53,468 nt of DNA from Acidobacteriota bacterium (GCA_021827255.1 JAKAWO010000001.1:1-53468), one strand, 5' to 3'; counted from the stretch's first letter, positions 17,210-51,430 are shown. The notes: generated by a model from the letters alone, not told the origin. Numbers and translations are program-made.

Positions 17210-17565
17210 GTCACCCGGCCCCTTGCCTCGCAATACCATGGCCCTTCGCGATTGTGCGGTGCTTTGTCGAAAACCGCGCAACAAGCTCTCCTTCGACGAC
17301 AACCTCGAAATCCTTCGCGAATACGAAGGGGACGAGTTCCACCTTGTTTCGCGCCCAGGACAAAAACACGCCGCACGGACAGCCGCTCTTGCGGTCCGCA
17401 GTTCTTCTTCGTTTCGCCTTCGGACAAAAGCCGCGGACCGCAGGGACAGCGGTTTGCGTAAGGGGCTCGCGCTATCCGCTTTGCGACGCCTATTTGGCTT
17501 TTAATCGCAGCATCAGCCTCCCTTCAACCTCCAACCCTTCGCCGACGCGCTACAATTCTAGTGGC

Positions 17566-18651
17566 ATGCGCTTGGAAGAATTCGATTACCAGCTTCCTGA
17601 AGAGCTGACCGCACAGCGCCCTCTTGAAGAGCGGGATCGGTCGCGCCTGATGCTGCTCGAACGCGCTCCCGGTCGTATGGAGGATCGAACCTTCCTCGAG
17701 TTGCCGGACCTGCTTCGTCCTGGAGACCTGGTCGTCTTCAACAACACCAAGGTTTTTCCCGCGCGATTGCTCGGCCGGCGGCGCGGCTCGCGCGCCCAGA
17801 AGATCAGCCCGGCGAACCCTGCGGCCCGCGGCTACCTCACCGCCGAGATCGAGTTGCTCTTGACGCGCGAGGAAGGTGGAGGAATTTGGCAGGGCTTGGT
17901 TCATCCGGGACGAAAAGTTCCAGTGGGCGAAAGGCTTGTTTTCGGCGAAGGCGAACTCGAAGCCGAAGTCATTGGGCGGGGAGCGTACGGCGAGCGCCGA
18001 GTAAAGCTGTGGGCGCGCTCGGGGCCGGTCGAAGAGGCAATAGAGCGACTGGGCCACGTGCCTCTGCCACCGTACATCCGCCGGCCGGACGAAGCGAGTG
18101 ACAGCCAAACTTATCAAACGATCTATGCCAAAGCGCCTGGGGCGGTGGCGGCGCCGACGGCGGGACTGCATTTTACCGAGCGGATGCTCAGGCGCCTCGT
18201 CCAGCGCGGCGTTGAAACCACGGAGATCACGCTCCACGCCGGTCTGGGAACCTTTCAGCCAGTCCGCCAAGCGCGCATCGAAAACCACGTCATGGAAGCC
18301 GAGCGGATGGAGGTGAATGAAAGCGCGGCGAGCGCCATCTCTCGCGCTCTCGATGATGGGCGGCGGGTCATCGCCGTCGGAACGACGGTTGTCCGAACGC
18401 TCGAGCACGTCGCCAGCCAGCACGGCGGCCGGATCGAACCGGCGCGCGCGGAGACGCGCCTTTTCATTTATCCCGGCTTCGAGTTTCGCGTTGTTGGCGG
18501 CCTGCTGACCAACTTTCACCTGCCGAAATCAACCTTGCTGATGCTCGTGAGCGCGTTCGCAGGGCGCGAGTTTATCCTGCGCGCTTACCGCCACGCCATC
18601 GAGCGGCGTTACCGCTTTTACAGCTACGGTGATTGCATGCTGATTCTCTAG
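17566..18651 (+). CDS. queA: S-adenosylmethionine:tRNA ribosyltransferase-isomerase
   Basis: MRLEEFDYQLPEELTAQRPLEERDRSRLM, VFNNTKVFPARL, PLPPYI, GAVAAPTAGLHFT, AVGTTVVRTLE and YRFYSYGDCMLI all match QueA. Confidence 0.95.
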   Translation: MRLEEFDYQLPEELTAQRPLEERDRSRLMLLERAPGRMEDRTFLELPDLLRPGDLVVFNNTKVFPARLLGRRRGSRAQKISPANPAARGYLTAEIELLLTREEGGGIWQGLVHPGRKVPVGERLVFGEGELEAEVIGRGAYGERRVKLWARSGPVEEAIERLGHVPLPPYIRRPDEASDSQTYQTIYAKAPGAVAAPTAGLHFTERMLRRLVQRGVETTEITLHAGLGTFQPVRQARIENHVMEAERMEVNESAASAISRALDDGRRVIAVGTTVVRTLEHVASQHGGRIEPARAETRLFIYPGFEFRVVGGLLTNFHLPKSTLLMLVSAFAGREFILRAYRHAIERRYRFYSYGDCMLIL

Positions 18652-27581: not shown

Positions 27582-28136
27582 CTAATTCGGGCGTGAATTC
27601 CGAGTAGCAACTTTCACCGGGGTCAGCCGCACATCAAGCTTCTGGACGATCGGTTGCTCGACTTTGAGAAGGGTTTCAGAAGGTTCGTACCCCGGGGCTT
27701 CCACACGGAGCGTATGCTCGCCCATAGGGAGCTGGATGGGCCCCAAATCGCGGGCCGATCCAACGTCCGATCCATCCAGAGTCACATGGGCATGCGAAGG
27801 TTTCGCTGTCAGCAGAAGTGTCGTAACCGAATCCCACGGGTAGCCGGCGGAGGGATTGTAACCCGCCTGGCGCGGGTCGTCGCTGGCATTTGGTCCCGCC
27901 CACCAATAGGAACCGAGATAAGAAGTGGAGGGCGGAATCATCGGCAGCGCAAAAGCGGGAGAATAAAAGCCCCCGTACACGTTGAGCGGGACGGGATTAA
28001 AAAAGACGCTCCTCCCGCTGGCAGGCGCTAGGATGCTCGGACCCCCGGCGGCCTCGGCGATAAGGCTAAAATTGGTTGCCAAGAGAAAGCAGAGGAAGCC
28101 GCCAGGAAGGATCAATCGGACGCTTGGCGAACGCAT
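27582..28136 (-). CDS. Secreted PEGA domain protein
   Basis: A signal peptide, then the C-terminal HVTLDGSDVGSARDLGPIQLPMGEHTLRVEAPGYEPSETLLKV, which carries the PEGA motif as APGY. Confidence 0.7.
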   Translation of the reverse strand: MRSPSVRLILPGGFLCFLLATNFSLIAEAAGGPSILAPASGRSVFFNPVPLNVYGGFYSPAFALPMIPPSTSYLGSYWWAGPNASDDPRQAGYNPSAGYPWDSVTTLLLTAKPSHAHVTLDGSDVGSARDLGPIQLPMGEHTLRVEAPGYEPSETLLKVEQPIVQKLDVRLTPVKVATRNSRPN

Positions 28137-28212: not shown

Positions 28213-29136
28213 TCACTGGCCTGAGTGTGGGACGAGCCAGCTCTTCGCTCCAAGATTGTCCGCGGCCAGGACGCGCGCTTCCGCGCGGACGCCGTGCTCC
28301 TGGAGGGCGCCACAGATCAATCGCCCCACGTCCTCCGCGTCTTCCTGGACAAAGCTGAGGATGGAAGGACCTGCACCACTCAGGCAAATGCCCTGGATGC
28401 CAGGGTGCTCAAGGCGGAGGACTTCGCCCAGTCCAGGAATGAGCGGGGCGCGGTAGGGTTGATGGAAACGATCTTCGAAGAGCAATGGCGCAAGATCCAT
28501 CCGGCCGGAAAAAAATTGCGCCGCCAACACCGCCGCTCGCTGCAAATTATGGACGCTGTCGTCGCGGGTGTACTGCGTCGGGAGCACGGCGCGAGCCTTT
28601 TCCGTCGGCAAGGCGTAATCGGGAATCACAAGCACCAAGGTAAGGGTGTCCGGCACCGGACACGACCAGGCTCGGATGCGATAGCCGGCCTGGACGGCGA
28701 GAGTAAAACCTCCGTGCCACGCTGCCGCGACATTATCGGGATGCCCGCCCTCAAGGCGCGCGGCGATGGAGAGCACATCATCGTCGGCGGGCGCGCGGCC
28801 CGCCAGCCGATAGCTCAGGGCGACAGCGGCGATGATTGCGGCGGCGCTTGAACCCAGCCCCACGCCGATGGGGATTTGGTTGTTGATTTCAAGGTCTAGC
28901 CCCTCCGGATGCTTCCACGCGCGCAGAAGATCGCGCATCGTTCGGGCGATCAGATTGCTCTCATCCAGCGCGACCCGTTCCGGTGTCGCTCCCTGATATT
29001 GGATCGAGAGGCCTCCGTCCTCGCGAGGCGCAGCCCCGACTTCCAGATAGAGTTGGAGCGCGATGCCCGCGCAATCAAACGCGCATCCCAGATTGGCGCT
29101 GGTGGCGGGGACACGGACGGAAACGGCTGGCGGCAT
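28213..29136 (-). CDS. thrB: Homoserine kinase (GHMP family)
   Basis: VRVPATSANLGCAFDCAGIAL and IPIGVGLGSSAAAIIAAV (GHMP motif II). The length and C-terminal pattern are typical of ThrB. Confidence 0.9.
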   Translation of the reverse strand: MPPAVSVRVPATSANLGCAFDCAGIALQLYLEVGAAPREDGGLSIQYQGATPERVALDESNLIARTMRDLLRAWKHPEGLDLEINNQIPIGVGLGSSAAAIIAAVALSYRLAGRAPADDDVLSIAARLEGGHPDNVAAAWHGGFTLAVQAGYRIRAWSCPVPDTLTLVLVIPDYALPTEKARAVLPTQYTRDDSVHNLQRAAVLAAQFFSGRMDLAPLLFEDRFHQPYRAPLIPGLGEVLRLEHPGIQGICLSGAGPSILSFVQEDAEDVGRLICGALQEHGVRAEARVLAADNLGAKSWLVPHSGQ

Positions 29137-29182
29137 AGGTTGGTAAATCGCGCGATCGGAATTGCGGACTGAACGCCCCGCT

Positions 29183-29461
29183 TCAGACGCCCCCGGCGAT
29201 GGCGGGAATCAAAAGCACTTCATCGCCGTCCTCGAAAGCGTAACCGGCCCCGCCGAGAAAGCGAATGTCCTCATCGTTGACGTAAATGTTCACAAAGCGG
29301 TGTGGCGTTCCATCCTCGGCGCAGAGGGCCTTCTTGATGCCTGGAAACTGGCGCTCGAGGCTTTCAAACAAACCGGTGAGATTGGTAGCGTCGCTTTCGG
29401 CGACCTCGGCCCCTCCGGTAAATTTCCTGAGCGGGGGTGGAATGCGAATGGTGATAGCCAA
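29183..29461 (-). CDS. CysO/MoaD/ThiS-family ubiquitin-like sulfur-carrier protein ending in GG-Val
   Basis: AITIRIPPPLRKFTGGAEV...HRFVNIYVNDEDIRFLGGAGYAFEDGDEVLLIPAIAGGV closely parallels Mycobacterium CysO as I recall it (...HRFVNIYVNDEDVRFSGG...ILPAVAGG). I propose a TTG start at 29461, 5 nt after GGAGG. The track's longer N-terminus has no family counterpart. Confidence 0.8.
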   Translation of the reverse strand: MAITIRIPPPLRKFTGGAEVAESDATNLTGLFESLERQFPGIKKALCAEDGTPHRFVNIYVNDEDIRFLGGAGYAFEDGDEVLLIPAIAGGV

Positions 29462-29612
29462 GAGAACCTCCGAAACATGTTGCCACTCCGAATTGAGCGG
29501 CTTGGCACGCTGGCGCCTCAGGGGGCCCCGATGAGTCTTCCCCTTCCCCACGCCCCAACGGTCCTAAACCACGACGGGGAAATGACCGTCGCGGCTATCC
29601 ATTACGCAGACG

Positions 29613-30866
29613 CTAAGCACGAGCTGACGCCAAGCCAAGGTAGTTTTCTTCAAACTCGGCAAGCTTGGGCCGGATGGCCGCGCTGCGGTGTGCGTCGCGC
29701 AACGCGCCGCTCACCGCTCCGAGAGTCTTCATGCCGTTGCCCGTGATCGCCAGGACAATGGATTCGTCGGGATTCAGGCGCCTTTGTTCGATCAGCTTCC
29801 GCGCCACGGCGACGGCCACGCCGCCGGCGGTTTCGGCAAAAATACCTTCCGTCTCGGCCAGCAAACGGATGCCCTCGACGACTTCCTCGTCGGAAGCATC
29901 CTCGCCAGCGCCGCCCGAGCCCAGGATGGTTTTGACGGCATAATAGCCGTCGGCCGGATTGCCGATGGCCAGCGATTTGACGATGGTCCGGGGCTTCTGC
30001 GGCTCGATTTCAGCAATGCCTTTCTTGGCGGCGGTGGTAATGGGTGAACAGCCCGTGGCCTGAGCGCCAAAAAATTTGGTTCCGTGAGGTTCCACCCATC
30101 CGAGCTGCCGAAGCTCGTGGAAAGCCTTATTGATTTTAGTAATCAGCGAACCCCCCGCCATCGGCACCACGATGTTCTGAGGCAGGCGCCATCCCAACTG
30201 CTCCGCTACTTCATAGCCGAAGGTTTTCGATCCTTCGGAATAGTAGGAGCGAAGGTTCACGTTGACGATGCCCCACGAATATTTCTGGGCGATCTCCGAG
30301 CAAAGGCGGTTGACTTGGTCGTAATTCCCGTTGATCTGGACCAGCGTCGCGCCGTAAATTTCCGTGCCGATGATTTTTTCGGGTTCGAGGTCGGCGGGAA
30401 CAAAGATGAAAGTTTTGAAACCGCCGCGCGCCGCTTGCGCCGCGACGGCATTTGCCAGGTTGCCGGTCGAAGAGCATCCCACCGTGTCAAATCCGAACTC
30501 GCGAGCCTTCGAAAGCGCCACGGCCACCACGCGGTCCTTGAACGACAGGGTGGGGAAATTGACGGCGTCGTTTTTCAGATAGACTTCCCGCGCGCCGAGG
30601 GCTCGCGCCAGCCGCGGAGCTAGAGCCAGGGGCGTAAATCCGGTGGAGGTGCCGACGTAAGGCTCACCGGTCAGGGGCAACAATTCATGGTAGCGCCACA
30701 TGGTGGGCGGCCGATGAGCGATGGCGTCGCGAGAAATCTCCGCCCGCAGCCGGTCGTAGTCATACACCACTTCCAGCGGAGCCCAACATTCCTCGCAGGC
30801 GGCCATGGGCTCGATGGGATACCTCCGGCTGCATTCGCGGCATTTCAGGTGAGAGTGATAGTTCAC
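29613..30866 (-). CDS. Threonine synthase-family PLP enzyme with an N-terminal zinc ribbon (ThrC, or a MetM-like O-phosphohomoserine sulfhydrylase)
   Basis: PLP lysine motif FPTLSFKDR, followed by GCSSTGN, and an N-terminal CRECSRRY...CEEC ribbon. GTG start at 30866, 4 nt after GGAGGG. Confidence 0.85.
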   Translation of the reverse strand: MNYHSHLKCRECSRRYPIEPMAACEECWAPLEVVYDYDRLRAEISRDAIAHRPPTMWRYHELLPLTGEPYVGTSTGFTPLALAPRLARALGAREVYLKNDAVNFPTLSFKDRVVAVALSKAREFGFDTVGCSSTGNLANAVAAQAARGGFKTFIFVPADLEPEKIIGTEIYGATLVQINGNYDQVNRLCSEIAQKYSWGIVNVNLRSYYSEGSKTFGYEVAEQLGWRLPQNIVVPMAGGSLITKINKAFHELRQLGWVEPHGTKFFGAQATGCSPITTAAKKGIAEIEPQKPRTIVKSLAIGNPADGYYAVKTILGSGGAGEDASDEEVVEGIRLLAETEGIFAETAGGVAVAVARKLIEQRRLNPDESIVLAITGNGMKTLGAVSGALRDAHRSAAIRPKLAEFEENYLGLASARA

Positions 30867-30940: not shown

Positions 30941-30976
30941 AAACAAAAAAGCCCTCCCGATCTCATCGGGGGGCTG
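30941..30976 (-). terminator. Intrinsic terminator forming the expression platform of the SAM-I riboswitch
   Basis: The minus-strand RNA reads GCCCCCCGA-UGAGA-UCGGG(A)GGGC followed by UUUUUU. That is a 9-bp GC-rich stem with one bulge and a 5-nt loop, and the U6 tract lies at 30945-30950. Confidence 0.8.
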
Positions 30977-31125: not shown

Positions 31126-31154
31126 ATTCAATTGTCGCTCACTATGTTAGTCAA
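31126..31154 (-). promoter_or_regulatory. Candidate promoter (TTGACT-N17-TTGAAT) for the riboswitch-controlled operon
   Basis: On the minus strand, TTGACT lies at 31154-31149 and TTGAAT at 31131-26. The predicted start is about 10-15 nt upstream of the P1 stem. The -10 is weak. Confidence 0.35.
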
Positions 31155-31257
31155 CAGGGCCGTCCGCTGTCAACCTTAAATTATGCGCCCCAGCCGGTTT
31201 CGCGGAGCGGCGCGCCAGAGCATGGCATGGTAGGCCGCGGCCGGGCGGGACGCCAGG

Positions 31258-32814
31258 TTAATGGGCGGATAGGCTGCGGCCTGTCCGCGGCTTCCTCATC
31301 AGGAAAATGAACGGCCACATGACCATGAATATCATCGCCAGCGTCCAGAAGGTGGCGTTATAAGCCAGCATGGCGCTGTGGCGCTCCACCAGGCGGAACA
31401 GGAAGGCGTCGGCGCGCGTGGAGGCTGTGGCCCCATCGGCCCCTTTCATAAAGAACATCTGCCGCACTGAGTTCGCCAAGGCTTGGCTGCCGAGGCTGTA
31501 GGGATTCACGTGGCGCCCCAGAAGGTTGAAATAGAGCTGCTCGCGGCGGGCCACCAACGTCGTGGAGGCTGCAATTCCCATGCTGCCACCGAGATTCCGC
31601 ATCAGGTTGAAGATGCTCGTGGCATTGCCCATACGCTCATTCGCGATCGGGTCCATCGTCGCGGTCGTCAACGGGACGAAGATCATTCCCATGGCGAGGC
31701 CCTGAATGAACTGCGGCCAGAATACCTGCCAGTAGCCAATGTTGAGATTGAGCGTGCCCAACATCATGAAGCTGATTGCCGTCACCAAGACACCGACGCT
31801 GAGCATTTTGCGGGCATCAAAACGCATCAATAGCACTCCCACGGTGGGCATCATCAAAAAGGAGCCAAAACCGCGCGGAAACAGCGCAATGCCCGCCTGG
31901 AGCGCAGGGTAACCGAGCAGCGTTTGCAACAGCAGTGGCAGGATGACCAAGCCGCCGTAAAGGCCGAAGCCGAGCAAGGTCATCAAAAACACGCCCGTGC
32001 CGTAGGTGCGAACCTTGAAGACGCGCAAGTCCACCACCGGGTGCTCGGTCATCAGCTCGCGGATGATGAAGATGACGATCGCTATGCCAGCGATGATGGC
32101 GAGGGTGAGGATAAAATGCGACCCGAACCAGTCGTCCTCCTGGCCCTTGTCGAGGACAATTTGCAAACAGGCGACGCCCAAGGCCAGAAACCCGATTCCC
32201 CAATAATCTATGCCGCCCTTGGAGCGTCTCAAGTAAGGCGGGTCGAAGATGAAGAGCTCGGTCATGACCAGCGCCAGGATGCCCACCGGCACGTTAATGT
32301 AAAAGACCCAGCGCCAGCTATAGCTGTCCGTAATCCAGCCGCCCAGCACCGGCCCCAGCATGGGGGCGACGACGATGCCCAATCCCCAAAACCCCATCGC
32401 TTTGCCGCGCTCTTCGGGAGGAAAAGTTTCCAGCAGCACCGCCTGCGAAATCGGCTGCAAGCCGCCGCCGCAGGCTCCCTGAATCACGCGGAAGACGATG
32501 AGTGCGGAAAGGGTAGGGGCGAAGCCACAGAGGAAAGATGCGGCGGTGAACCCCGTCACAGCCATCATCAGGAGGCGCTTGCGTCCGAATCGGCCAGCCA
32601 GCCAGCCCGTCATGGGCAGGATGATGGCGTTGGCGACCAGATAAGAAGTCAGCGCCCAGGTCGCTTCGTCCGGCGTTGCTGAAAGGCTGCCGGCAATGTG
32701 CGGCAGGGAAACATTGACCACCGTGGTGTCGAGCACTTCCATAAACGTGCTCAACATCACCGCAATGGCGATGATCCAGCGGTTGATCGGCGGTTTTTCG
32801 ATGGGCTCAGCCAT
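31258..32814 (-). CDS. DHA2-family (EmrB/QacA-type, 14-TMS) MFS efflux permease
   Basis: LDTTVVNVSLPHIAGSL, GWLAGRFGRKRLL and GACGGGLQP are MFS/DHA2 motifs. About 14 hydrophobic segments. ATG 32814 is preferred to the track's TTG at 32820. Confidence 0.87.
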   Translation of the reverse strand: MAEPIEKPPINRWIIAIAVMLSTFMEVLDTTVVNVSLPHIAGSLSATPDEATWALTSYLVANAIILPMTGWLAGRFGRKRLLMMAVTGFTAASFLCGFAPTLSALIVFRVIQGACGGGLQPISQAVLLETFPPEERGKAMGFWGLGIVVAPMLGPVLGGWITDSYSWRWVFYINVPVGILALVMTELFIFDPPYLRRSKGGIDYWGIGFLALGVACLQIVLDKGQEDDWFGSHFILTLAIIAGIAIVIFIIRELMTEHPVVDLRVFKVRTYGTGVFLMTLLGFGLYGGLVILPLLLQTLLGYPALQAGIALFPRGFGSFLMMPTVGVLLMRFDARKMLSVGVLVTAISFMMLGTLNLNIGYWQVFWPQFIQGLAMGMIFVPLTTATMDPIANERMGNATSIFNLMRNLGGSMGIAASTTLVARREQLYFNLLGRHVNPYSLGSQALANSVRQMFFMKGADGATASTRADAFLFRLVERHSAMLAYNATFWTLAMIFMVMWPFIFLMRKPRTGRSLSAH

Positions 32815-32820
32815 AATCAA

Positions 32821-33441
32821 TCAAGAATGAGCGCGAGGGACTCCTGCGGCGCAAACAATGGTGGCGGCCACGGTCTCAAGACCCAGGGTTGAGGAGATGG
32901 TTAAATGGTACAGGCGGCGGTCTTTCCAGTCCTCGCCGAAGAATCGCTTGATGTAGGCTGAGCGTTTGCGGTCAGTCTCCTCCAGGGCTCGCTCGACATC
33001 GGTGCCGGGAGCCAGCCGTCCGCGAAGACGTTGCACTTTTTCCTCGCGCGGCGCGAAGACGGAAACGTGGAAAACATCCTTGCGCCGGCGCAGCACACAC
33101 TGACTCCCGCGGCCGACAATCACACATTCGCCGGCCTGAGCGGCCTCGCGGAAAATTTCGGCGGTCATCTTTGCCATTGTCTCCGAATCGAAGGGCTCAG
33201 ACTCAGGGGTCGTCGCGGTAGAGGCATATGCGTGCCACAGGGCCTTCACCAGGCCATAAAACCAAGGGTCCACGCCTTCATCCGAACGCGCCGCCGCATT
33301 AGGAGGGACCTTCGCCCGGCGGGCGACCTCATCCACCACCGAGGCGTCCAGCAGCTTCCATCCCAGATGCTTAGCCAGGATTTCGGCGACGATTCCACCG
33401 CCGCTGCCGTGCTCGCGACTGACTGTGATGACGCGAAACAT
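32821..33441 (-). CDS. Cytidylate kinase-like family protein (Cytidylate_kin2-type P-loop protein)
   Basis: ITVSREHGSGGGIVAEILAKHLGWKLLD, CVIVGRGSQCVLRRRKDVFHVSVFAP, DRKRSAYIKRFFGEDWKDRRLYHLTISS. This is the diagnostic pattern of the cytidylate-kinase-like family of unknown function. Confidence 0.8.
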   Translation of the reverse strand: MFRVITVSREHGSGGGIVAEILAKHLGWKLLDASVVDEVARRAKVPPNAAARSDEGVDPWFYGLVKALWHAYASTATTPESEPFDSETMAKMTAEIFREAAQAGECVIVGRGSQCVLRRRKDVFHVSVFAPREEKVQRLRGRLAPGTDVERALEETDRKRSAYIKRFFGEDWKDRRLYHLTISSTLGLETVAATIVCAAGVPRAHS

Positions 33442-33451
33442 TTCCGCCCCT

Positions 33452-34714
33452 CTACCTTTTTGTAATCACTGTGGGCTCGACCGACATGCCCTCCCGCAAA
33501 AGATGCTGCGGATCCTGCCCTGGATCGAACACAATCTTCACCGGAATCCGCTGCACTACTTTGACGTAATTTCCCGTGGCGTTTTCTGGCGGCAGCAGGC
33601 TGAATCGGTCCCCGGTCGCGCCGGCGATATTGAGAACGTGCCCTTTGTAATCCCGGCCGTAGGCGTCCACGTGGATTGTGGCTGGATTGCCCGGGCGCAT
33701 ATGCCGCAACTGGGTCTCCTTGAAATTGGCGGTGACGTAAAGGCCGTTGACGGGGACCACCGCCATCAGCGCCTGGCCCGCCTCGACGTTTTGGCCGGGC
33801 TCGATGGACTTTTTCCCGACGATGCCGTCGGCCGGCGCGCGGATCGTGGTGTAGCCGAGGTTGAGCTGCGCCTGGTCCAGGTTGGCCTTGGCCATCTTTA
33901 CAGCCGCGCGCGCCGCGTCCGCTTGAGCGCGGCTGACCCTAATACGTTGCGGTCCGGTCCTCGATGCCCGCAGGTTCGCTTGCGTCAGCAACAGCCCGGC
34001 TCGCGCCTCGGCCACCTTCTGCCGGGCCGCCAGCGCGTTCGCCTGCGCGGCGGTCACCGCCGCCGCATCCGCTTGCGCCGTGGCCAGCGTATGGTCGTAA
34101 CGCTGGCGCGAGATTTCTCCTTTCTTCACCAGCGCCGCGTATCGCCGCAAATCCGATTGGGCCTTCGCGTCATCCGCCTGTTTTTGTTTGACGGTGGCGT
34201 CGGCCGCTTGATACTCCCTTTGCGCCACGGCGAGCTCCGCCTGCGCTTGCTCGACGGCCGCTTGGGCGGCGGAGATTCCCGTGGAGGAAGCCACGGAGGT
34301 GATCGGCACCGTCACGTGCAACGCTTCGGCGTGAGCCAAGGCGTTCTCGTACTCGGCTTCGGCGCGCTCGACCGCCACTCGATAGTCGGTGGGGTCCAGG
34401 CGCGCCAGGATCTGCCCCTTCTTTACAAAGTCGTTGTTCTCCACCTCGACGGCGATGACGTGCCCGCTGACGCGCGCGCTGATGGCATAGAGATCGCCGT
34501 CAATCTGCGCGTCGTCCGTGCTCACCCGGTTGCGGTAGTAAAAATAAAAGCCAGTGACGACCGCGAGCGCCACGAGCCCCCCCGCCACGATCAAGCGGCG
34601 CGTCTTCGGGCGGGTTCGCGGCGCGGGAACGCTCTCGCGTTCGGCCACTCCGCCCGGTGGGGCTTCGCTCCGGTTTTCTTGCTCCAATTCGGTGATGTTG
34701 GGTGGTTCAGCCAT
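33452..34714 (-). CDS. HlyD/EmrA-type periplasmic adaptor (membrane fusion protein)
   Basis: An N-terminal TM is followed by STDDAQIDGDLYAISARVSGHVIAVEV.NNDFVKKGQILARLDP. There is a long coiled coil rich in A/Q/R, then TIRAPADGIVGKKSIEPGQ and GMSVEPTV. Confidence 0.87.
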   Translation of the reverse strand: MAEPPNITELEQENRSEAPPGGVAERESVPAPRTRPKTRRLIVAGGLVALAVVTGFYFYYRNRVSTDDAQIDGDLYAISARVSGHVIAVEVENNDFVKKGQILARLDPTDYRVAVERAEAEYENALAHAEALHVTVPITSVASSTGISAAQAAVEQAQAELAVAQREYQAADATVKQKQADDAKAQSDLRRYAALVKKGEISRQRYDHTLATAQADAAAVTAAQANALAARQKVAEARAGLLLTQANLRASRTGPQRIRVSRAQADAARAAVKMAKANLDQAQLNLGYTTIRAPADGIVGKKSIEPGQNVEAGQALMAVVPVNGLYVTANFKETQLRHMRPGNPATIHVDAYGRDYKGHVLNIAGATGDRFSLLPPENATGNYVKVVQRIPVKIVFDPGQDPQHLLREGMSVEPTVITKR

Positions 34715-34723
34715 GACGATTCC

Positions 34724-36358
34724 TCACTTCGAATAGAGATCCTCCATCTTGCCCATCGCGCGGGCCAACTCCGCCCGCGACTCGTTGTATTGATAGAGGG
34801 CGCCGATCTGATTGTCGTTGGCTCGCGCCAGTTCATCTTGCGCGGTAACGACTTCAATATCGTTGGCCACGCCGGCCGCAAAGCGGTCACGCGCCTCAGC
34901 GACTTCCTGGTTTGCCAGTTTCACGCCCAGGTTGGCTACTTCGACCTGGTGCTTGGCGGACTCTAGATCCGCCAGCGCCGTCTTCACCTCGAGCGCGATC
35001 CGGGCGCGGATGTCCTGATCCTGTTCCTGTAGCGCCCGAAGCGCCAAATGAGCCTTGGCTCGCTCCGCCCGGATGCGGCCACTTGAGATCAAGGGAAACT
35101 GGACGTTCACCTGGTACGTGTACGCCGGAATGGCCGACGCCACCGAGAGACCCTGATACTCCCAGCCGCCCCCCACATTGACGGTGGGCCAGCGTGCCTC
35201 GCCCGCCGCCTTTTCCTCGGACTCCGCGGCTCGTTCGCGCGCCTCGATAGCCTTCAGTTCCGGACGGCTGGCAAAGGCCGCCGCCAGAGTGGACCCCGCG
35301 TTGAACGAAGGGGTTTCGAAAAAACTCATCTCGTTCTTCAGGACAATGGGTTGGCGGGGGCCCAGATTGAGCAGCCTCGCCAGCCCATAGAGCGATGTCC
35401 GCAAGTCGGTCTCGGCCGCAATTCTCCGCTGCAATTCGTTTTGAAGCTGGACGTTGGCGCGCAGCGTATCGAGCTCTGTGCCCACGCCGTGCGTTTGAAG
35501 GTCGCGCGCCTGCTGATAAAGCGCCCGCGCCAGCGCCACCCGCGCCTGCGAAGCCCTTACGTTAGCGGCGGCCCGCAGCCCGGCGAGATATTGGGAAACG
35601 ACCAGCAAAACCGTCTGCTCGCGGACCGTCGCGGCGTCTTGCTGGCTGGCCTGGACACTGTGCTGCGCCGCCTGCCATTTTCGCAACAGGCTGAGGTCAA
35701 AAATCGGCATCGAGAAGCGCGGGCCCGACTGGAAGACTTGAAAAGGCCCCACGTGCTCGAAGGGCAGTGGGAAAGCTCCGCCGGCGAACGCTTTGATGTT
35801 GAATCGCTGAACTTCGTCGAAGGTGTCGAGGGTCGCTTGGGGCAGCAATCCGGATCGCGCGATCTTCTGGTCCTGCTCGCTCTCCGCCAGCGTCAGGTTC
35901 GCAATCTGCGCCTCGGGATTCTGCCGCAGAGCTAACTGGACTGCCTGCCGCAAGCTCAATTGGAGGGGCGGTTTGGCTGCGGCATTCGCTTTTCGCCCCG
36001 CCCCAAAGGGAAGGATCAACAGCAGCAGCGCGCCCACGATCTTCTTCGTCTCGCGGCTGGCTGGCGGCATTCCGGAGGACGGCGGCGCTTCTTTCGAGAT
36101 CTCTTCCACCAGGCGCTTGGTCATGCAGTCCTGCGCTCGCAGCTTGCCCCCCGCCTGATAAATCCTCGAGAGCACTCGTTTGCCCTCGGCGTCAATGAAG
36201 GTGACGCCTGTCAAGTCCATCACGAGGTTCTGCGTCTGCCCGCCTCCTTGCGCTTCCCGCCACTTTCGTTCCAATTCGCCTGCCCACTGTCCCACGAGTT
36301 TTCCTTCCACCTTGAAAGTCGCCTGACCGGGTTCAAATTGCGCGGTTATTTTCAGCAT
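34724..36358 (-). CDS. TolC-family outer membrane factor preceded in the same frame by a STAS (anti-sigma-antagonist-like) domain
   Basis: Residues from MLKITAQFEPGQATFKVEGKLVGQWAGELERKW...LVMDLTGVTFIDAEGKRVL form a STAS-like module. An internal Met at 36070 then begins a complete Sec signal peptide (MPPASRETKKIVGALLLLILPFGAGRKANA/AA), followed by TolC repeats (LSLRQAVQLALRQNPEAQIANL...). There is no stop codon between the two parts. Confidence 0.75.
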   Translation of the reverse strand: MLKITAQFEPGQATFKVEGKLVGQWAGELERKWREAQGGGQTQNLVMDLTGVTFIDAEGKRVLSRIYQAGGKLRAQDCMTKRLVEEISKEAPPSSGMPPASRETKKIVGALLLLILPFGAGRKANAAAKPPLQLSLRQAVQLALRQNPEAQIANLTLAESEQDQKIARSGLLPQATLDTFDEVQRFNIKAFAGGAFPLPFEHVGPFQVFQSGPRFSMPIFDLSLLRKWQAAQHSVQASQQDAATVREQTVLLVVSQYLAGLRAAANVRASQARVALARALYQQARDLQTHGVGTELDTLRANVQLQNELQRRIAAETDLRTSLYGLARLLNLGPRQPIVLKNEMSFFETPSFNAGSTLAAAFASRPELKAIEARERAAESEEKAAGEARWPTVNVGGGWEYQGLSVASAIPAYTYQVNVQFPLISSGRIRAERAKAHLALRALQEQDQDIRARIALEVKTALADLESAKHQVEVANLGVKLANQEVAEARDRFAAGVANDIEVVTAQDELARANDNQIGALYQYNESRAELARAMGKMEDLYSK

Positions 36359-36395
36359 CGCACATCCCACGTAAGTGAATTTCAGGAACCCAAGC

Positions 36396-36411
36396 TGCAA
36401 GGCGGGTGCCA
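36396..36411 (-). promoter_or_regulatory. Sigma-54 (-24/-12) promoter, TGGCAC-N5-TTGCA
   Basis: The minus strand reads TTGGCACCCGCCTTGCAGC, a perfect GG-N10-GC element. It lies 38 nt upstream of the ATG at 36358 and 173 nt downstream of the stop of a sigma-54 enhancer-binding protein gene. The track's TTG start at 36412 lies within this element. Confidence 0.8.
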
Positions 36412-36519
36412 AGCTGGCCGATTGGCCCGGATGGGATTTAACCCCCTGAAAACCAGGTGGTTACAAGAAAATTGGGGGTCAGGACTGACGCAATTTTGAT
36501 CCACTTAGTGGCTGTTAAC

Positions 36520-36583: not shown

Positions 36584-38794
36584 TTACCGGCGAACAATGC
36601 CGAGTTTGCTCATTCTCGACTGGAGCGTGGAGCGCTTCATGCCAAGGCGTTGCGCGGCGCCATGCGAACCCGCAATTACCCAGCGGGTTTCCTGGAGAGT
36701 GCGAAGGATGTGCTGCCGCTCCACTTCTTCGAGCGTAAGACGATCTCCCGGCGGATCAGCGGAAGGGAGCGCAGGCTGTTTCAGTTCTGACAAGGGCAGG
36801 CGGAGGGCCGGGCCGGGCGAGAGGATGACGGCCCGCTCGATCAGGTTTTCGAGTTCGCGGACGTTCCCCGGCCAGGGATAGCGCACCAGTTCATCGAGCA
36901 CCTCGCTGGGGACGGTTTCGATTCTCCGGTCCATCTGGCGGGCGTACTTCTGGGCAAAATAGCTGACCAGCAGAGGAATATCTTCCGGCCGCTCGCGCAA
37001 AGGAGGAACGGTCAGCGGGAATACGCTGAGGCGGTAATAGAGGTCGCTGCGAAAGCCTCCGGCCTGGACCCATTCCGCCAAGTTGCGGTTGGTTGCGGCG
37101 ACCAAGCGCACGTCGGTGCGGATGGTCCGAATGCCGCCCAACCGCTCGAATTCCTGCTCCTGCAGGACGCGCAGCAGCTTGGGCTGGAGTTCGAGCGGGA
37201 TGTCGCCGACTTCATCCAAAAACAGCGTCCCGCCACTGGCCAGCTCGAAGCGCCCGATCTTCTGCGTCAGAGCGCCTGTGAAGGCGCCTCGCTCATGCCC
37301 GAACAATTCGCTTTCGAGCAGCCCGCTGGGGATCGCGGCACAGTTCAACTTGACAAACGCTCTCTCGCGGCGGCGGCTCAAGTTATGGATAGCGCGGGCG
37401 ATCAATTCCTTGCCCGTCCCTGTCTCACCCAGAATCAGCACGGTCGAGTCGGTCGGCGCCACCGTTTCTACATCCCTTAACACCCGCTTCAACGCGGCGC
37501 CTTCGCCGATGATTTCTTCAAAGTTGTGCTCGGTGCGGATTTCATCTTCCAGATAGAGTTTTTCCTCCGCCAGCTTTTCTTTGAGCGCGGCAATTTGGCG
37601 GAATTGCAGCGCGTTTTCCATCGGAAGGGCGATCTGGCTGGCGGCTTGGGTTAGAAAGTCGAGTTCCCTTTGCGTAAAGGCGGGACCTCGCGCGCGCGCC
37701 AGGATCAGCGCTCCGAGGGCGTGGCTCCGCCCGATCAGGGGCAGACAGCAACCGCTCGCCGCGCCTTCGCCGGGCCGCAGCCTCTGAAGGCCTGCCGCGA
37801 ATTCCTTGGGCCAAAGGGGGCTCGAGGCCAGCGACGGCTGGCTCAAGTCCATGAGGACGGCTTCGCGTTTTTCGATGGAGGGGCCCGCCGGAGTGCCTCC
37901 GAGCGGAACCGGAACCGCCGGCGGCAGCGCCGTGCCCTCCCGTTCATGGACGGAATAAACCTGGAGGGTGTGGCTTTCTTCTTCAAGGACGCCGATGCCG
38001 GCGTAATCGTACTCCACGATGCGGTGGAGGGATTGCCCGATGGCCGCGCGCAAGCCGTCCAACTCGAGGTTGGAAACGATGGCGTTCGTGATGTCGAGCA
38101 GGGCGCGCAGCCGGTCTCGCTCCTGCGCCAACTGCCGCTGATAGGATTCCAGGCTTTGCGTGTTGAGGGCGTTATCCACCGCGACGGCCACTTGGTTGGC
38201 CACTTGGGCCAGAAATTCCAGGTCGGACGCCGCGTAGGCGTTTTCCTTCTCGCTGCCAAACCCAAGGGCCCCAAGCCGCCGCTGCGCGGTGGTCAGCGGC
38301 AGCGAGCAGATGGACTTGACGTTGTGCGCGCGGAGGATGTTTGAAACCTTGGGGAATCGCTGATCTGTTTCGATGTGGCCAATGATGACCGGCGATTGAG
38401 TTTCCAAGGTCCATCCGGCGGGCGATTCTTCGACCGGAAACTCGAGGCCGGCCTCGAGCTGGGTGGGGACGGCGCTCTCCAGGATGTGCAATCGCATCGT
38501 CCGCCGCTGCGGCTCGTAGAGGACCAGGGTCAAAAACTCATACCGGACCACCCGATGAAGCCGCTCGGCCAGATCGTGAAACAGCGCTCCCAGGTCGCGG
38601 TGCGCGGCGATGGATTCGGAGACCTCCAGCAGCGCCGCGTATTGATCCTGGGCCGTCACCGAGCTTTGGGCGCTCGGCGCGAGGGCTTCCCTTGAGCGCC
38701 CTCGGCGGCTCGATCCAGCCCCCTTGGCCGGCTTCCCTGAGCCTTCTCGAAGATGGGCTCTGGACGCTGTCGGTCTGGCTCGCCTTTTGGCCAT
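36584..38794 (-). CDS. Sigma-54-dependent transcriptional activator with two N-terminal GAF-like domains (FhlA-like architecture)
   Basis: AAA+ core with Walker A GETGTGKELIARAIH, the sigma-54 contact loop ESELFGHERGAFTGA, Walker B LFLDEVGD, and a C-terminal Fis-type HTH AAQRLGMKRSTLQSRMSKLGI. The N-terminal roughly 400 aa contain two GAF-like modules. Confidence 0.9.
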   Translation of the reverse strand: MAKRRARPTASRAHLREGSGKPAKGAGSSRRGRSREALAPSAQSSVTAQDQYAALLEVSESIAAHRDLGALFHDLAERLHRVVRYEFLTLVLYEPQRRTMRLHILESAVPTQLEAGLEFPVEESPAGWTLETQSPVIIGHIETDQRFPKVSNILRAHNVKSICSLPLTTAQRRLGALGFGSEKENAYAASDLEFLAQVANQVAVAVDNALNTQSLESYQRQLAQERDRLRALLDITNAIVSNLELDGLRAAIGQSLHRIVEYDYAGIGVLEEESHTLQVYSVHEREGTALPPAVPVPLGGTPAGPSIEKREAVLMDLSQPSLASSPLWPKEFAAGLQRLRPGEGAASGCCLPLIGRSHALGALILARARGPAFTQRELDFLTQAASQIALPMENALQFRQIAALKEKLAEEKLYLEDEIRTEHNFEEIIGEGAALKRVLRDVETVAPTDSTVLILGETGTGKELIARAIHNLSRRRERAFVKLNCAAIPSGLLESELFGHERGAFTGALTQKIGRFELASGGTLFLDEVGDIPLELQPKLLRVLQEQEFERLGGIRTIRTDVRLVAATNRNLAEWVQAGGFRSDLYYRLSVFPLTVPPLRERPEDIPLLVSYFAQKYARQMDRRIETVPSEVLDELVRYPWPGNVRELENLIERAVILSPGPALRLPLSELKQPALPSADPPGDRLTLEEVERQHILRTLQETRWVIAGSHGAAQRLGMKRSTLQSRMSKLGIVRR

Positions 38795-39012
38795 AAGTTT
38801 GAGATTAACACCTCATGAAAAGCGGGTCGAGTTCGCCGGCGGGACTGAGCGGTCGCTGATCCCATCGGGCGCGGCCGGGCTCGCTCGATGCTGCAAACCG
38901 CAGACGGACCGTCGAGCCGCCCGAAGCGGAGCCGGACGTGCAAGTGAATTTCACGCGGGGGGTCGAAAGCGGCAGCGCACGGCGTGGAGTGGATGGAGGA
39001 ACCGGCGCTCGG

Positions 39013-40350
39013 CTAACGGCTGCCGTTGCTCATCGAAGCGAGGAACTGGGCGTTGGTCTGTGTTCTCTCGAGCTTGTCTTTAATCAGCTCCATGCTCTCG
39101 ACGGGAGAAAGCGGGCTCAGCACTTTGCGAAGCACCCAGATGCGGTTGAGCTCATCCTTGGCCACCAACAGTTCTTCCTTTCGCGTCCCGGACTTGTTGA
39201 TGTCAATGGCCGGGAAGACGCGCTTCTCCACCAGTTTGCGGTCCAGATTGATTTCCATATTGCCGGTGCCTTTGAATTCTTCAAAGATCACGTCGTCCAT
39301 GCGGCTGCCCGTATCAATCAGCGCCGTGGCGATGATGGTCAAGCTGCCGCCTTCCTCGATGTTCCGGGCAGAGCCGAAAAAGCGCTTGGGGCGCTGCAGG
39401 GCGTTGGAGTCCACGCCGCCTGAGAGGACCTTGCCGGAGGGTGGAACCACCGTATTATAGGCGCGGGCCAGGCGCGTGATGGAGTCCAGCAGGATGACCA
39501 CGTCGCGCTTGTGCTCGACCAGCCGCTTGGCCTTCTCGATCACCATTTCGGCCACTTGGACGTGACGCGCCGCCGGCTCGTCAAAAGTGGAGCTGATGAC
39601 TTCGCCCTTCACCGTCCGCTGCATGTCCGTCACTTCCTCCGGCCGCTCATCAATCAGCAGCACAATCAACGTGATCTCCGGATGGTTCGTGGTGACGGAG
39701 TTGGCGATGCACTGGAGCAGCATCGTCTTGCCGGTGCGCGGCGGGGAAACGATCAGCCCGCGCTGCCCCTTGCCAATGGGCGTGAGCAGGTCCAGGACGC
39801 GCGCCGAAATGTTGTCTTTGGTTGTCTCCAGGCGAATGCGCTCCTGCGGATAAAGCGGGGTCAGGTTGTCAAAGAAGATCTTGTTTCGCGCCTCGTCAGG
39901 AGATTCAAAGTTGATGGCCTCGACTTTGATCAGCGCAAAGTAGCGCTCGCCCTCTTTGGGCGGCCGGATTTGCCCGGAAACCGTGTCGCCCGTCCGCAGG
40001 TCGAACTTGCGGATCTGCGACGGAGAGACGTAAATGTCGTCCGGGCCCGGCAGATAGTTGTAATCCGGGGCGCGCAGAAACCCGAATCCGTCCGGCAGGC
40101 ACTCGAGCACGCCTTCGGAGAAGATCAGCCCCGCCTTCTCCGTCTGCGCCTGCAGGATCTTGAAGATCAGTTCCTGCTTGCGCAACCCGGTCGCGCCGAC
40201 GACGTCCAGATCCTTAGCAACCTGGGTCAGGGCGGTGATATTCATTTCCTTCAGCTTGGCGATGTCTAGGACTTCGCCTTCTTTCAGTGCGGTGACGTTC
40301 GTTTCCTGGGGGTCTTCCTCAGGGGGTGCGGCTTGTTTCTTGGCGGTCAT
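39013..40350 (-). CDS. rho: Transcription termination factor Rho
   Basis: N-terminal [19 protein letters not shown]-like FGFLR, Walker [22 protein letters not shown] and [18 protein letters not shown]. Confidence 0.96.
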
Positions 40351-40672
40351 ATGGCTCTCTCAGCTTGCAGGTGAAATCCCAAGCCCCGTTGGGGCCGGTT
40401 GTTTGAGGATTGACAATGGATTAGGCTTGCGCTCCCGGATGGCCTGTGCGTCGGTCTGAAAAATCGGGGCGTGAATTCAAGACGGCATGCCAGCGGGGTG
40501 GGTTCAGGTGCAATCCTCGGTCTTCGTTCTGCTTATCAATCTTGAATGAACCTCAGACGAATTGGACTTCAAGGTTTTCGGACTGGTCTTGGCGGCGCTC
40601 AGTTCCAGTGGACTCTCCGGCCTCTTGCCGGGGTTGCAAGCTACAGGCCGGGATTCCCCTGCGACTTGCTCC

Positions 40673-43102
40673 TTAGTTCGTCAGCGGCTCGTGTTCCGCC
40701 ACTGCGCCGGGTTCGAGCCTCGCGGCTTGAGGCGGCTCGGGGGCGAGTTCCGCGACCGCTTCGATCTTCCGCTCCAGCGCCATGTCCAGCACCTCATCCA
40801 TGCTCTCGACAAATCGGATGGCCAGCGCTTCCTGGATATTGGCCGGAATCTCGCTCAGATCCTTCTCATTGTCTCGCGGCAGAATGACCGTCTGGTTGCC
40901 AGCCCTCAGAGCGGCCAGGATTTTCTCCTTGACGCCGCCGATCGGCAGCACCTTGCCGCGCAGCGTGATTTCGCCCGTCATGGCGATCTCGCGATGGACC
41001 GGAATCTTGGTCAGGGCGCTCACCACGGCGGTCGCTAGCGTGATGCCAGCCGACGGCCCATCCTTGGGAATGGCCCCTTCGGGAACGTGAATATGAATGT
41101 CGAGGTTGCGGTAGAAATCCGCCGGCAGCCCCCAGCGCGTGGCGCGCGAGCGCACATAACTGAGCGCGGCTTGGGCGGACTCCTGCATCACGTCACCCAG
41201 CTTGCCGGTCAAGGTCAGCTTCCCCTTACCCTGCATGGTGGTCGCTTCGATGCTCAGAATCTGCCCCCCCGTCTCCGTCCACGCCAGGCCCGTCGCCAGT
41301 CCCACCTCGTTCTTCTCTTCCGCCTCCGTATCCCGAAATTTGACCACGCCCAGATAATCTTGGACGTCCTCGGGCCGGACGGTGATCTCGACCTTGGAGC
41401 CTTGCTGGACCACCTTGCGGGCCATCTTGCGAGAGACGTTGGCGATTTCGCGCTCCAGGCTCCGCACCCCCGCCTCGCGCGTGTAACTCCGAATGATAGC
41501 CAGAATGGCCTCGTCCGTGAAGGCCAAGTGCTTCTCTTTCAGCCCTGCCGCTTCCCGCTGTTTTCGCACCAGAAACCGCTTGGCGATTTCCAGTTTCTCA
41601 TGTTCCGTGTAGCCGGACAGGCGCAAGATCTCCATGCGGTCCTGCAGCGGCTGAGGAATGGTGTGGATGACGTTGGCCGTGGTGATGAAAAAAACCTTGG
41701 AAAGATCGTACTCCACATCCAGGTAATGATCCATGAACATGTGGTTCTGCTCGGGGTCCAAGACCTCGAGTAGGGCGGCCGAAGGATCGCCACGGAAGTC
41801 CATGCTCATCTTGTCCACTTCGTCCAGCAAAAAGACCGGGTTCGTGGTGCCGGCCTTTTTCATCATCTGGATGATTTGGCCGGGCAGCGCGCCGATATAA
41901 GTCCGCCGGTGGCCGCGGATTTCCGCCTCATCGCGCACCCCGCCCAGGGAGAGTCGCACGAACTTGCGTCCCGTCGCCCGCGCAATCGAGCGTCCCAGCG
42001 ATGTTTTGCCCACTCCGGGTGGACCCACAAAGCAGAGGATCGAGCCTTTGGGCGTTTTGACGAGCTGCCGGACGGCCAGAAACTCCAGGATCCGCTCTTT
42101 GATCTTCTCCAGCCCGTAGTGATCTGCTTCGAGCACCTTTTCCGCGCGCCGGATGTCGCGAATTTCCTTCGATTTCTTCTTCCACGGCACCGCCAGCAGC
42201 CAGTCGAGGTAATTGCGGGACACCGTGGATTCCGCCGACATGGGAGGCATCTGCTCCAGCCGCCGCAATTCGGCCATGGCTTTCTCATTCGCGTCCTTGT
42301 TCATGCCGGCCGCGTCAATCTTTTTCTTCAGCTCCTCGAGTTCGTTCTTTTCGTTGCGCCCCAACTCTTTTTGAATCGCTTTGATTTTCTCCTGGAGGTA
42401 ATACTCGCGCTGGGCGCGCTCCATCTGCCGCTTGACCCGCCCCTGGATTGTGCGGTCCACGTTGAGCTTCTCAATTTCGATATCCAGCAGGTCCGCCAGG
42501 CGGTTCAGTCGGTCCACCGGGTCCAGGATCTCCAGCAGTTCCTGCTTCTCCTCCACGCTCACGTTCAAGTTGGCGGCGATCGTGTCCGTGAATTTACCGA
42601 TTTCCTCCACCTTGGCCGCGGCGATCATCGTTTCATAGTTGAGGCTCTGCGAAAGCTTGACGTACTGCTCAAAAAGCGAGGTCACGCGCTGCACCAACTG
42701 CTCCAGGCTCGGCGTCGTGACCGCGCGGTAGCTGCTCACCTTCACGGAGACGCGATAGTAACCTTCTTCGCTCGAAATCTTCTGGATCTTTCCCCGCTCC
42801 ACGCCTTCCACCAGAACCTTGATGTTCCCGTCCGGCAGCTTGAGGCTCTGGATGATGTTGGCGATGGTGCCCACTTGATAGATGTCTTGGGGCTTGGGAT
42901 CCTCCACGGCGCCGTCGTGCTGCGTGGCGAGAAAAATCTTCTTCTCCTCCGCCAAAGCCTCCTCCAGCGCCCGGATCGAGTTCTCGCGCCCCACCACGAA
43001 GGGCGTCATCATATACGGAAAGATGACCACCTCCCGGATCGGCATCATGGGCAGCGTTCGCACTTCGCTCTTTTCTCGGCCGGAGAACATGGAGGAATCC
43101 AT
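40673..43102 (-). CDS. lon: ATP-dependent Lon protease (endopeptidase La)
   Basis: [15 protein letters not shown] (LON N-domain), Walker [16 protein letters not shown], and the protease domain [19 protein letters not shown] with the catalytic Ser. Confidence 0.96.
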
Positions 43103-44364: not shown

Positions 44365-44379
44365 GGCCTCCCCCTCCGC

Positions 44380-44985: not shown

Positions 44986-45000
44986 GAGTCTTACCCAAAA

Positions 45001-51240: not shown

Positions 51241-51430
51241 TCGATGTACCTCCCTCAATCTTTCTTCACTGGTGCTTAAGGACAAAACGAGCTTAGCATT
51301 GACCCAGGGGAAAAAACACCAACTTCCAAGGTGGTAGCTTAGCAAGACGCTCGCCATATGTCAATGAGATTAACGCGCAATAAATACAAGCGATAGTCAT
51401 AGGAAGGCATCTCGCAGCCCTGTGAATTTT

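Follow-up and report, generated by a model that had tools for sequence, protein, structure and literature searches.

A SAM-I riboswitch operon in an uncultured acidobacterium joins a predicted MetM-type homocysteine synthase to a CysO-like sulfur carrier and homoserine kinase

We describe a three-gene operon on a 53,468-bp contig from an uncultured soil Acidobacterium (Acidobacteriota, Terriglobia), hereafter the window, meaning the whole stretch of DNA that was analysed. The genes encode a homologue of threonine synthase (ThrC), a small sulfur carrier and homoserine kinase (ThrB), and all features of the operon lie on the minus strand. Its 5' end is marked by a sigma-70-like promoter candidate at 31144..31173 (TTGACA-18 nt-TAACAT), with 10 of 12 matches to a consensus that is not validated for acidobacterial promoters. 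About 40 nt 3' of this candidate follows a SAM-I riboswitch aptamer (S-box, RF00162; 30997..31105), and then an intrinsic terminator hairpin with a U-run (30941..30974) that constitutes the expression platform. Downstream are the 417-aa ThrC-like enzyme dependent on pyridoxal phosphate (PLP), predicted to be of the MetM type (29613..30866), a 92-aa beta-grasp sulfur carrier of the MetO/CysO type (29183..29461) and the 307-aa homoserine kinase gene thrB (28213..29136). The original prediction, made from the sequence alone, had named these three genes, and Pfam and TIGRFAM matches place each of them on the minus strand exactly where it had put them. The genes are co-directional and separated by 151 nt (enzyme–carrier) and 46 nt (carrier–thrB), and because no terminator-like site is found on the minus strand within either gap, we regard them as one transcription unit. 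Match scores, together with recurrence on many independent contigs, exclude a chance occurrence of the arrangement.

The riboswitch lies just outside 28213-30866, the interval to which the original prediction was confined. Exactly one Rfam family, the SAM-I aptamer, is found in the whole 53 kb, and it is full-length (model positions 1-108 of 108, E=3.9e-18), its 82.9 bits exceeding the gathering threshold of 44.4. The hairpin GCCCCCCGAUgagAUCGGGAGGGC, followed by U6GU3, begins 22 nt 3' of the aptamer; its arms are arranged as GCCCCCCGAU-gag-AUCGGGAGGGC, then UUUUUUGUUU. The sequence GAUGAGA, the 3' strand of helix P1, is repeated in the 5' arm and loop of this hairpin, and in the minimum-energy fold of the full leader the 5' strand of P1 pairs with the repeat, a pairing that would make a plausible anti-terminator. 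Judging from this riboswitch and terminator anatomy, the element would act as an OFF switch through which S-adenosylmethionine (SAM) represses the unit. Where a SAM-repressed unit had been claimed, we thus observe the aptamer, the terminator and the co-directional genes, and read the repression itself from their anatomy.

The original prediction also pointed to a ThrC homologue and carrier pair from Streptomyces that turns O-phosphohomoserine (OPH) into homocysteine, and this is correct: in the pathway of S. albulus (Hasebe et al. 2024, AEM 90:e01247-24, as described in Appendix 4 of bioRxiv 10.1101/2024.10.14.618325 and in PMC12172450), OPH is converted to homocysteine by MetM in dependence on the thiocarboxylate of MetO, with MoeZ and Mec as helpers. 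The account in PMC12172450 presents S. albulus metM as a ThrC homologue with a SAM riboswitch upstream and an associated metO, and with homologues in cyanobacteria. According to the GapMind authors, MetM is often misannotated as threonine synthase, and the pathway is already built into their annotation tool (bioRxiv 10.1101/2024.10.14.618325).

The enzyme of the window begins at a GTG codon with GGAGG 6 nt upstream. Its matches to PF00291 (E=4e-68) and TIGR00260, its PLP lysine (K110, in SFKDR) and a set of N-terminal cysteines at C9, C12, C24 and C27, which vary little or not at all among 28 homologues, identify it as the ThrC-family PLP enzyme with an N-terminal zinc ribbon that had been predicted. 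The ribbon was considered as a marker of MetM and rejected, since canonical ThrC of Terriglobia also carries CxxC...CxxC; it is present as claimed but does not discriminate. NCBIfam and Pfam models were likewise rejected as a membership test because they do not separate MetM from ThrC: TIGR00260 is also passed by the MetM of a relative, L130 (263.5 bits), and NF006050 (PRK08197) is narrowly missed by the window enzyme (290.7 vs 303).

We built our own profiles instead. The enzyme scores 510.8 bits against a hidden Markov model (HMM) of actinobacterial MetM and 233.6 bits against one of canonical ThrC, and proven ThrCs show the reverse, with ~175 bits against the MetM HMM and ~450 bits against the canonical one. 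A search for representative homologues yielded 12,067 relatives. In a neighbour-joining tree, a MetM-like clade that unites the window protein with those of other Acidobacteria, Streptomyces and intermediate representatives is recovered in 199 of 200 bootstraps, and the canonical ThrC clade, with the window protein outside it, in 200 of 200. The profile and phylogeny comparison that the original prediction had proposed therefore sets the enzyme with the Streptomyces proteins and apart from proven threonine synthases. Stand-ins took the place of S. albulus MetM itself in all of these comparisons, namely the proteins of other Streptomyces with the riboswitch-gene-carrier layout.

Pairwise identity is 50-55% over ~410 aa to proteins from riboswitch-enzyme-carrier loci of ~20 Streptomyces species and other Actinomycetota, against 28-36% to five solved ThrCs (1uim, 6cgq, 2zsj, 2d1f and 1e5x, from Thermus, Bacillus, Aquifex, Mycobacterium and Arabidopsis). 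The solved enzymes carry PTGSFKDRG, STGNT[SA], VNSVNPxRxEGQKT, PVGNAGN, IGNPASW and TGNGLKD, none of which occurs in the window enzyme, where PTLSFKDRVV, STGNLA, VNVNLRSYYSEGSKT, PMAGGSL, IGNPADG and TGNGMKT are found. All eight motifs that differ from the five solved ThrCs are common to the window enzyme and the Streptomyces proteins, for example VNVNLRxYYxEGSKT. The nearest relatives share SFKDRVV, C[AS]STGNLA, VNVNLRPYYAEGSKT, PMA[GS]GS, GAQAxGCSP, SLAIGNPADG, ETAGGVT and TGNGLKT in addition to the four-cysteine ribbon. Several of the differing positions presumably line the pocket for the substrate phosphate and PLP seen in the Thermus structures. An AlphaFold model (predicted local distance difference test score 92.4) was matched by Foldseek to the threonine synthase fold, with a template modelling score of ~0.9 normalised to the target, and no closer structure, and none of a MetM, was found in the PDB. 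Judged by these sequence comparisons, the enzyme is not a housekeeping threonine synthase; it is predicted to be a homocysteine synthase dependent on a carrier thiocarboxylate, of the kind usually annotated 'threonine synthase'. There are thousands of close homologues with 77-89% identity, the named ones belonging to Acidobacteriota/Terriglobia and all annotated 'threonine synthase', and the identical gene is also found on metagenome contigs from several samples.

The mechanically called open reading frame (ORF) of the carrier spans 29183..29551. We prefer the TTG start at 29461, which gives the 92-aa protein, because of the homologues, the colinearity with CysO and a GGAGG site. The protein belongs to the ThiS family (PF02597, E=7e-13), and its best solved match is Mycobacterium tuberculosis CysO (3dwg_C; E=7.6e-20, residues 3-91 against 3-93, 45% identity), an end-to-end alignment that agrees with the near-colinearity to the mycobacterial protein claimed earlier. 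Best solved matches of the CysO type reach E ~1e-19, and MoaD-type entries E=3.8e-6 or weaker. Identity is 75% to the carrier of L005, a relative described below, and 41% to a Streptomyces filamentosus carrier encoded 3' of a MetM-like gene. The C-terminus reads ...IPAIAGG-V and thus extends one residue past Gly-Gly, so that C-terminal processing would be needed before activation. In carriers of the close acidobacterial clade IPAIAGG is strictly conserved and followed by tails of 1-15 residues; actinobacterial carriers mostly end in a bare GG, with GGC in 7 Streptomyces loci.

We note that in further MetM relatives a NIL domain (PF09383) is fused to the carrier or follows it (L105-L107, L110, L111 and L133; examples at L106 3967..4542, L114 8074..8310 and L089 3826..4062). 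Fusion of carrier and NIL places the Gly-Gly internally, and cleavage would then be obligatory. Elsewhere the NIL domain occurs in MetN, a methionine transporter, and also in methanogen homocysteine genes.

The third gene is identified as thrB, the maker of OPH named in the original prediction, by an equivalog match to TIGR00191 (241.2 bits vs cutoff 168.25, residues 5-298 on model 1-300 of 304) and by GHMP_kinases_N. The order enzyme-carrier-thrB recurs in two relatives whose flanking genes are unrelated to those of the window (L005 and L006), and in all 12 metagenome loci of the 77-80% identical clade that have enough downstream sequence. The riboswitch is present in L005, in L006 and in 4 of 4 tested loci of that clade. 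Gene spacing in L005 and L006 ranges from a 4-nt overlap to 32 nt, with 2-5 nt between carrier and thrB, and such overlapping or near-abutting genes argue that thrB is co-transcribed with enzyme and carrier. The proposed recruitment of thrB into a SAM-controlled operon is therefore seen in the window, in both of these relatives and in all 12 close metagenome loci, 15 of 15 in total. A second architecture, in which MetM is directly followed by thrB with no carrier nearby, is found in ~14 loci, with the riboswitch in 8 of 8 tested. The recurrent linkage to thrB provides independent support for OPH as the substrate. As a separate observation, loci of this second architecture often lie beside a convergent dapD-dapA-dapB-aspartate kinase cluster (L177 12340..16195, L152, L163 and L167), together forming an aspartate-family 'supercluster'.

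A scan of species-representative genomes with an actinobacterial seed, its matches ranked by identity to that seed, listed 80 Actinomycetota loci, including ~20 Streptomyces species. A carrier 37-47% identical to that of the window lies immediately 3' of the enzyme gene in 49 of these 80 loci, and thrB lies within 6 kb in none of the 80. Each of the 11 actinobacterial loci tested has the SAM-I riboswitch directly 5' of the enzyme gene. Over both phyla, 34 loci were checked and 32 have it: the window, L005, L006, the 11 actinobacterial loci and 18 of 20 metagenome loci, where it lies upstream on the MetM strand. The riboswitch had been read as a hint of the same chemistry; it is indeed there, but it belongs to the known system, as S. 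albulus metM and the 11 actinobacterial loci attest, and adds no new clue. Hasebe and colleagues reportedly placed metO directly 3' of metM, and the pathway reportedly occurs in further bacteria and in archaea. Micromonosporaceae and relatives (L007-L031) have the SAM-I riboswitch and a MetM-like gene with no carrier nearby, a 407-aa ORF following in L011; the carrier of this type must be encoded elsewhere or be shared with CysO. In Streptosporangium, a Transposase-2 RNA (RF03015, 70 bits; L034 810..876) was noted ~5 kb 5' of the MetM locus.

Metagenome loci with a MetM ~60% identical to that of the window hold further sulfur-relay genes. By tblastn we count ThiF-type E1 in 30, a class-V aminotransferase (cysteine-desulfurase-like) in 18, NIL in 14 (in some cases as a carrier fusion), TusA in 11, Prok-JAB in 7 and a sulfite-reductase-like gene in 5, and Pfam confirmed examples of each family. 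A row of E1, desulfurase-like gene, MetM and carrier stands behind one SAM-I riboswitch in both L112 and L136, and in L114 the sulfite-reductase-like gene adjoins MetM. These neighbourhood genes are the set that one would look for where a protein thiocarboxylate is made and consumed, and they parallel the CysO/MoeZ/Mec and HcyS/HcyF/HcyD systems.

If the window held the only thrC and thrB of its genome, threonine synthesis too would fall under SAM control, a worry raised in the original prediction. For thrC this is unlikely, since canonical thrC stands beside the MetM operon in three relatives. In two of them, whose MetM is 62-65% identical to that of the window, the MetM-carrier genes and a thrC-thrB-hom operon are transcribed away from each other (L130 1..4000 and L145 584..4228), and in the third a canonical thrC-thrB(-hom) is paired with MetM-carrier in like manner (L176 3260..7309). 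The canonical thrC products of L130 and L145 have STGNTSA and all canonical motifs, and are 43-47% identical to solved ThrCs and 33% to the window enzyme. The SAM-I riboswitch of these paired loci was tested and found in L130 only. That both are kept side by side argues that the two 'threonine synthases' are distinct paralogues. Canonical thrC is widespread in Terriglobia, where it is regularly followed by thrB. We further note that in L130, L145 and L176 the genes for the two OPH-consuming enzymes flank a common intergenic control region. In other Terriglobia (L170-L175) a small cupin gene (PF07883) lies directly 5' of canonical thrC-thrB and a divergent Cys_Met_Meta_PP gene is found nearby; these lineages may also hold a conventional sulfhydrylase or cystathionine enzyme.

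The question of thrB is a different one. It may be that this lineage has no homoserine kinase gene besides the thrB behind the riboswitch, in which case the OPH for both methionine and threonine would be SAM-gated, a reading that we put forward tentatively and consider rather doubtful. The MetM operon is devoid of thrB in all three loci that show canonical thrC-thrB alongside (L130, L145 and L176). The presence of thrB in one operon or the other fits one mobile copy better than two, as circumstantial evidence. A tree of ThrB groups by operon type, which is compatible with one copy that has moved and equally with a dedicated paralogue. No contig was common to the match lists of MetM and canonical ThrC among the longest contigs compared, L177 having been viewed over +/-10 kb of its 3.6-Mb contig. 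If a sole thrB were true, it would create a plant-like OPH branch point at the RNA level and tie threonine to the SAM status of the cell in an unusual way, with threonine synthesis dependent on riboswitch read-through or on an unrecognised internal promoter.

In sum, we conclude that the operon most probably encodes an acidobacterial version of the MetM/MetO thiocarboxylate route to homocysteine, with the kinase that supplies the substrate built into the operon. This conclusion is built on the observed gene identities, the orthology with the Streptomyces proteins, the separation from canonical ThrC, the conserved synteny and the anatomy of riboswitch and terminator; the suggestion of the same chemistry in a distant phylum is accordingly supported by orthology, profiles, tree, motifs and synteny. 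The chemistry itself is extrapolated from the Streptomyces work and from the CysO and HcyS analogues. We propose that (I) ThrB would phosphorylate homoserine to OPH, (II) a JAMM/Mec-type peptidase encoded outside the window would cut the C-terminal valine from the 92-aa carrier, and a MoeZ/ThiF-type E1, also encoded outside it, would adenylate the exposed Gly-Gly and lead to the thiocarboxylate, (III) the ThrC-like PLP enzyme would bind OPH and eliminate the gamma-phosphate as threonine synthase does, whereupon the carrier thiocarboxylate would attack C-gamma, in place of water at C-beta, (IV) homocysteine would be freed by an S-to-N acyl shift and hydrolysis, by analogy with CysO/CysM/Mec, (V) homocysteine would be converted to methionine and on to SAM, and (VI) binding of SAM to the SAM-I aptamer would let the terminator form and switch the three genes off together. 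Maturation and activation of the carrier and the direction of regulation are thus predicted from analogy and anatomy.

Several points weigh against this conclusion. The enzyme still scores above the cutoff of TIGR00260 'thrC' (270.3 bits vs 167.1), and the carrier cannot be separated from CysO by its sequence (45% identity, vs 41% to the Streptomyces carrier). The 53-kb window contains no E1, JAMM peptidase or other methionine gene, and the relatives with no carrier nearby (Micromonosporaceae and MetM-thrB loci) suggest that carrier dependence may not be universal. Family membership does not guarantee function either: as reported in PMC12172450, a Microcystis 'ThrC' that is 51.6% identical to S. 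albulus MetM and is encoded beside a metO-like gene acts weakly in vitro as a threonine synthase and as a threonine deaminase, and in vivo it did not increase methionine. What doubt remains comes mainly from this moonlighting of a cyanobacterial homologue and from the fact that members of the acidobacterial clade are known from their genes alone.

The same carrier-less loci (Micromonosporaceae, and the ~14 MetM-thrB loci including L177) would be accommodated by an OPH sulfhydrylase that uses free sulfide or another small donor, with the carrier optional or intended for another acceptor, and the sulfite-reductase-like gene adjoining MetM in L114 would fit as well. Carriers encoded elsewhere could, however, serve those loci, a carrier with a strictly kept IPAIAGG lies between MetM and thrB in the window and in 14 of 14 close relatives whose sequence extends far enough, and in more than one phylum MetM is found clustered with genes for carrier, E1 and JAMM. 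Since the Streptomyces enzyme also uses the MetO thiocarboxylate, as described in bioRxiv 10.1101/2024.10.14.618325, we find such a sulfhydrylase very improbable. About as improbable, in our view, is a bifunctional or moonlighting enzyme with relevant threonine synthase or threonine deaminase activity beside or instead of homocysteine synthesis, in an operon that also serves threonine. The Microcystis homologue with its two weak activities in vitro (PMC12172450) is the precedent for it, and thrB in the operon, the ThrC fold with its PLP lysine and the TIGR00260 score above cutoff would agree; against this speak the SAM-I control of 32 out of 34 loci, which points to methionine, the occurrence of canonical thrC together with MetM in related genomes, and the conserved motifs by which the MetM clade departs from every solved ThrC. 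Finally, we give almost no credence to an ordinary threonine synthase beside an unrelated ThiS-like gene (for example for molybdopterin or thiamine) and a riboswitch that is incidental or controls something else. In favour of it, all database names read 'threonine synthase', TIGR00260 gives 270 bits over a cutoff of 167 and thrC is classically found in one operon with thrB. Against it, the enzyme is separated from proven ThrCs by profiles, phylogeny and motifs alike, MetM is often misannotated in just this way (bioRxiv 10.1101/2024.10.14.618325), the riboswitch-enzyme-carrier unit is conserved from Streptomyces to Acidobacteria, and the carrier resembles CysO-type structures (E ~1e-19) rather than MoaD-type ones (E=3.8e-6 or weaker).

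With the MetM/MetO route as the preferred reading, thousands of acidobacterial and other 'threonine synthase' genes are probably MetM-type homocysteine synthases. Relabelling them would alter reconstructions of methionine and threonine pathways and predictions of auxotrophy in one of the most abundant soil phyla. The chemistry is already known, having been published in 2024, and thrB within the SAM-controlled operon is a local variation on it; the locus would extend the Streptomyces pathway by placing thrB under the SAM switch. The neighbourhood variants, with E1, desulfurase-like, TusA, JAMM, NIL and sulfite-reductase-like genes, would in turn outline the whole sulfur relay.

Other genes of the window are described here for orientation. 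A gene for a PEGA-domain protein lies directly after thrB (27582..28136, minus strand; 184 aa, secreted-looking) and was considered as an operon member; it was rejected because it is not conserved in L005 or L006. A second protein, of 617 aa, combines PEGA with OmpA (49504..51357, minus strand), and neither PEGA gene is kept beside the operon in relatives. Directly 5' of the riboswitch is an efflux operon (31258..36412, minus strand) composed of an outer-membrane factor that carries STAS at its N-terminus (34724..36412; PF01740, 27.3 bits, and two OEP repeats), an HlyD protein (33452..34714), a cytidylate-kinase-like protein (PF13189; 32821..33441) and a major facilitator superfamily pump (31258..32820). 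Both the STAS-OEP fusion and a kinase-like gene within an EmrAB-type operon are unusual. Further 5', a housekeeping block of tig, clpP, clpX, lon and rho is followed by a GAF-GAF sigma-54 activator (36584..46311, minus strand); the block is ordinary and serves as a synteny marker only, lon and clpX being found near the MetM of L087 as well. On the plus strand, the QueA match (PF02547) of a 465-aa ORF (17254..18651) begins at residue 107, which points either to a called GTG start that lies too far upstream or to an N-terminal extension.

Comparison with known systems places the operon nearest to its Streptomyces counterpart. It shares with MetM/MetO of S. albulus a PLP enzyme of the same clade, a CysO-like carrier immediately 3' and a SAM-I riboswitch immediately 5', and with several Streptomyces carriers a single residue beyond Gly-Gly (GGC in 7 loci, GGV here). 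It differs in that thrB lies within the operon, the host belongs to Acidobacteriota (Terriglobia) and carrier tails measure 1-15 residues where most actinobacterial carriers end in a bare GG; in the acidobacterial system the helper genes and the activity are predicted. The CysO/CysM/Mec/MoeZ system of M. tuberculosis is similar in its carrier, 45% identical and colinear, and in the expected combination of a phospho-amino-acid substrate and a protein thiocarboxylate on a fold-type II PLP enzyme. In contrast, the partner here is ThrC-like (models of cysM and cysK give 25-45 bits against cutoffs of ~350-390, those of cysK and cysKM 38-44 bits against ~345-390), the expected substrate is OPH rather than O-phosphoserine, no mec/JAB gene lies in the window, and the predicted control is by SAM. 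In the HcyS/HcyD/HcyF/MetY system of Wolinella succinogenes, attributed to Krishnamoorthy and Begley, homocysteine reportedly also receives its sulfur from a protein thiocarboxylate, and the C-terminus of the carrier is said to be masked and to need a metalloprotease. Relatives of our locus resemble it in clustering with ThiF, JAB and sulfite-reductase-like genes, whereas MetY is reportedly a fold-type I O-acetylhomoserine sulfhydrylase and the enzyme here is a fold-type II, ThrC-like protein predicted to act on a phosphate ester.

With canonical ThrC the enzyme has in common the fold, the PLP lysine motif and presumably both the substrate and the phosphate-elimination half-reaction; it is set apart by 28-36% identity, a separate clade, substitutions in every motif compared, the SAM riboswitch and the true thrC that accompanies it in relatives. 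Plants, finally, use OPH as the common precursor of methionine and threonine, with cystathionine gamma-synthase taking cysteine as its sulfur source and SAM activating threonine synthase allosterically. Similarly to the plant branch point, OPH would be shared here and SAM would set its partition; unlike in plants, SAM would act on an RNA switch, and the sulfur donor would be a protein thiocarboxylate.

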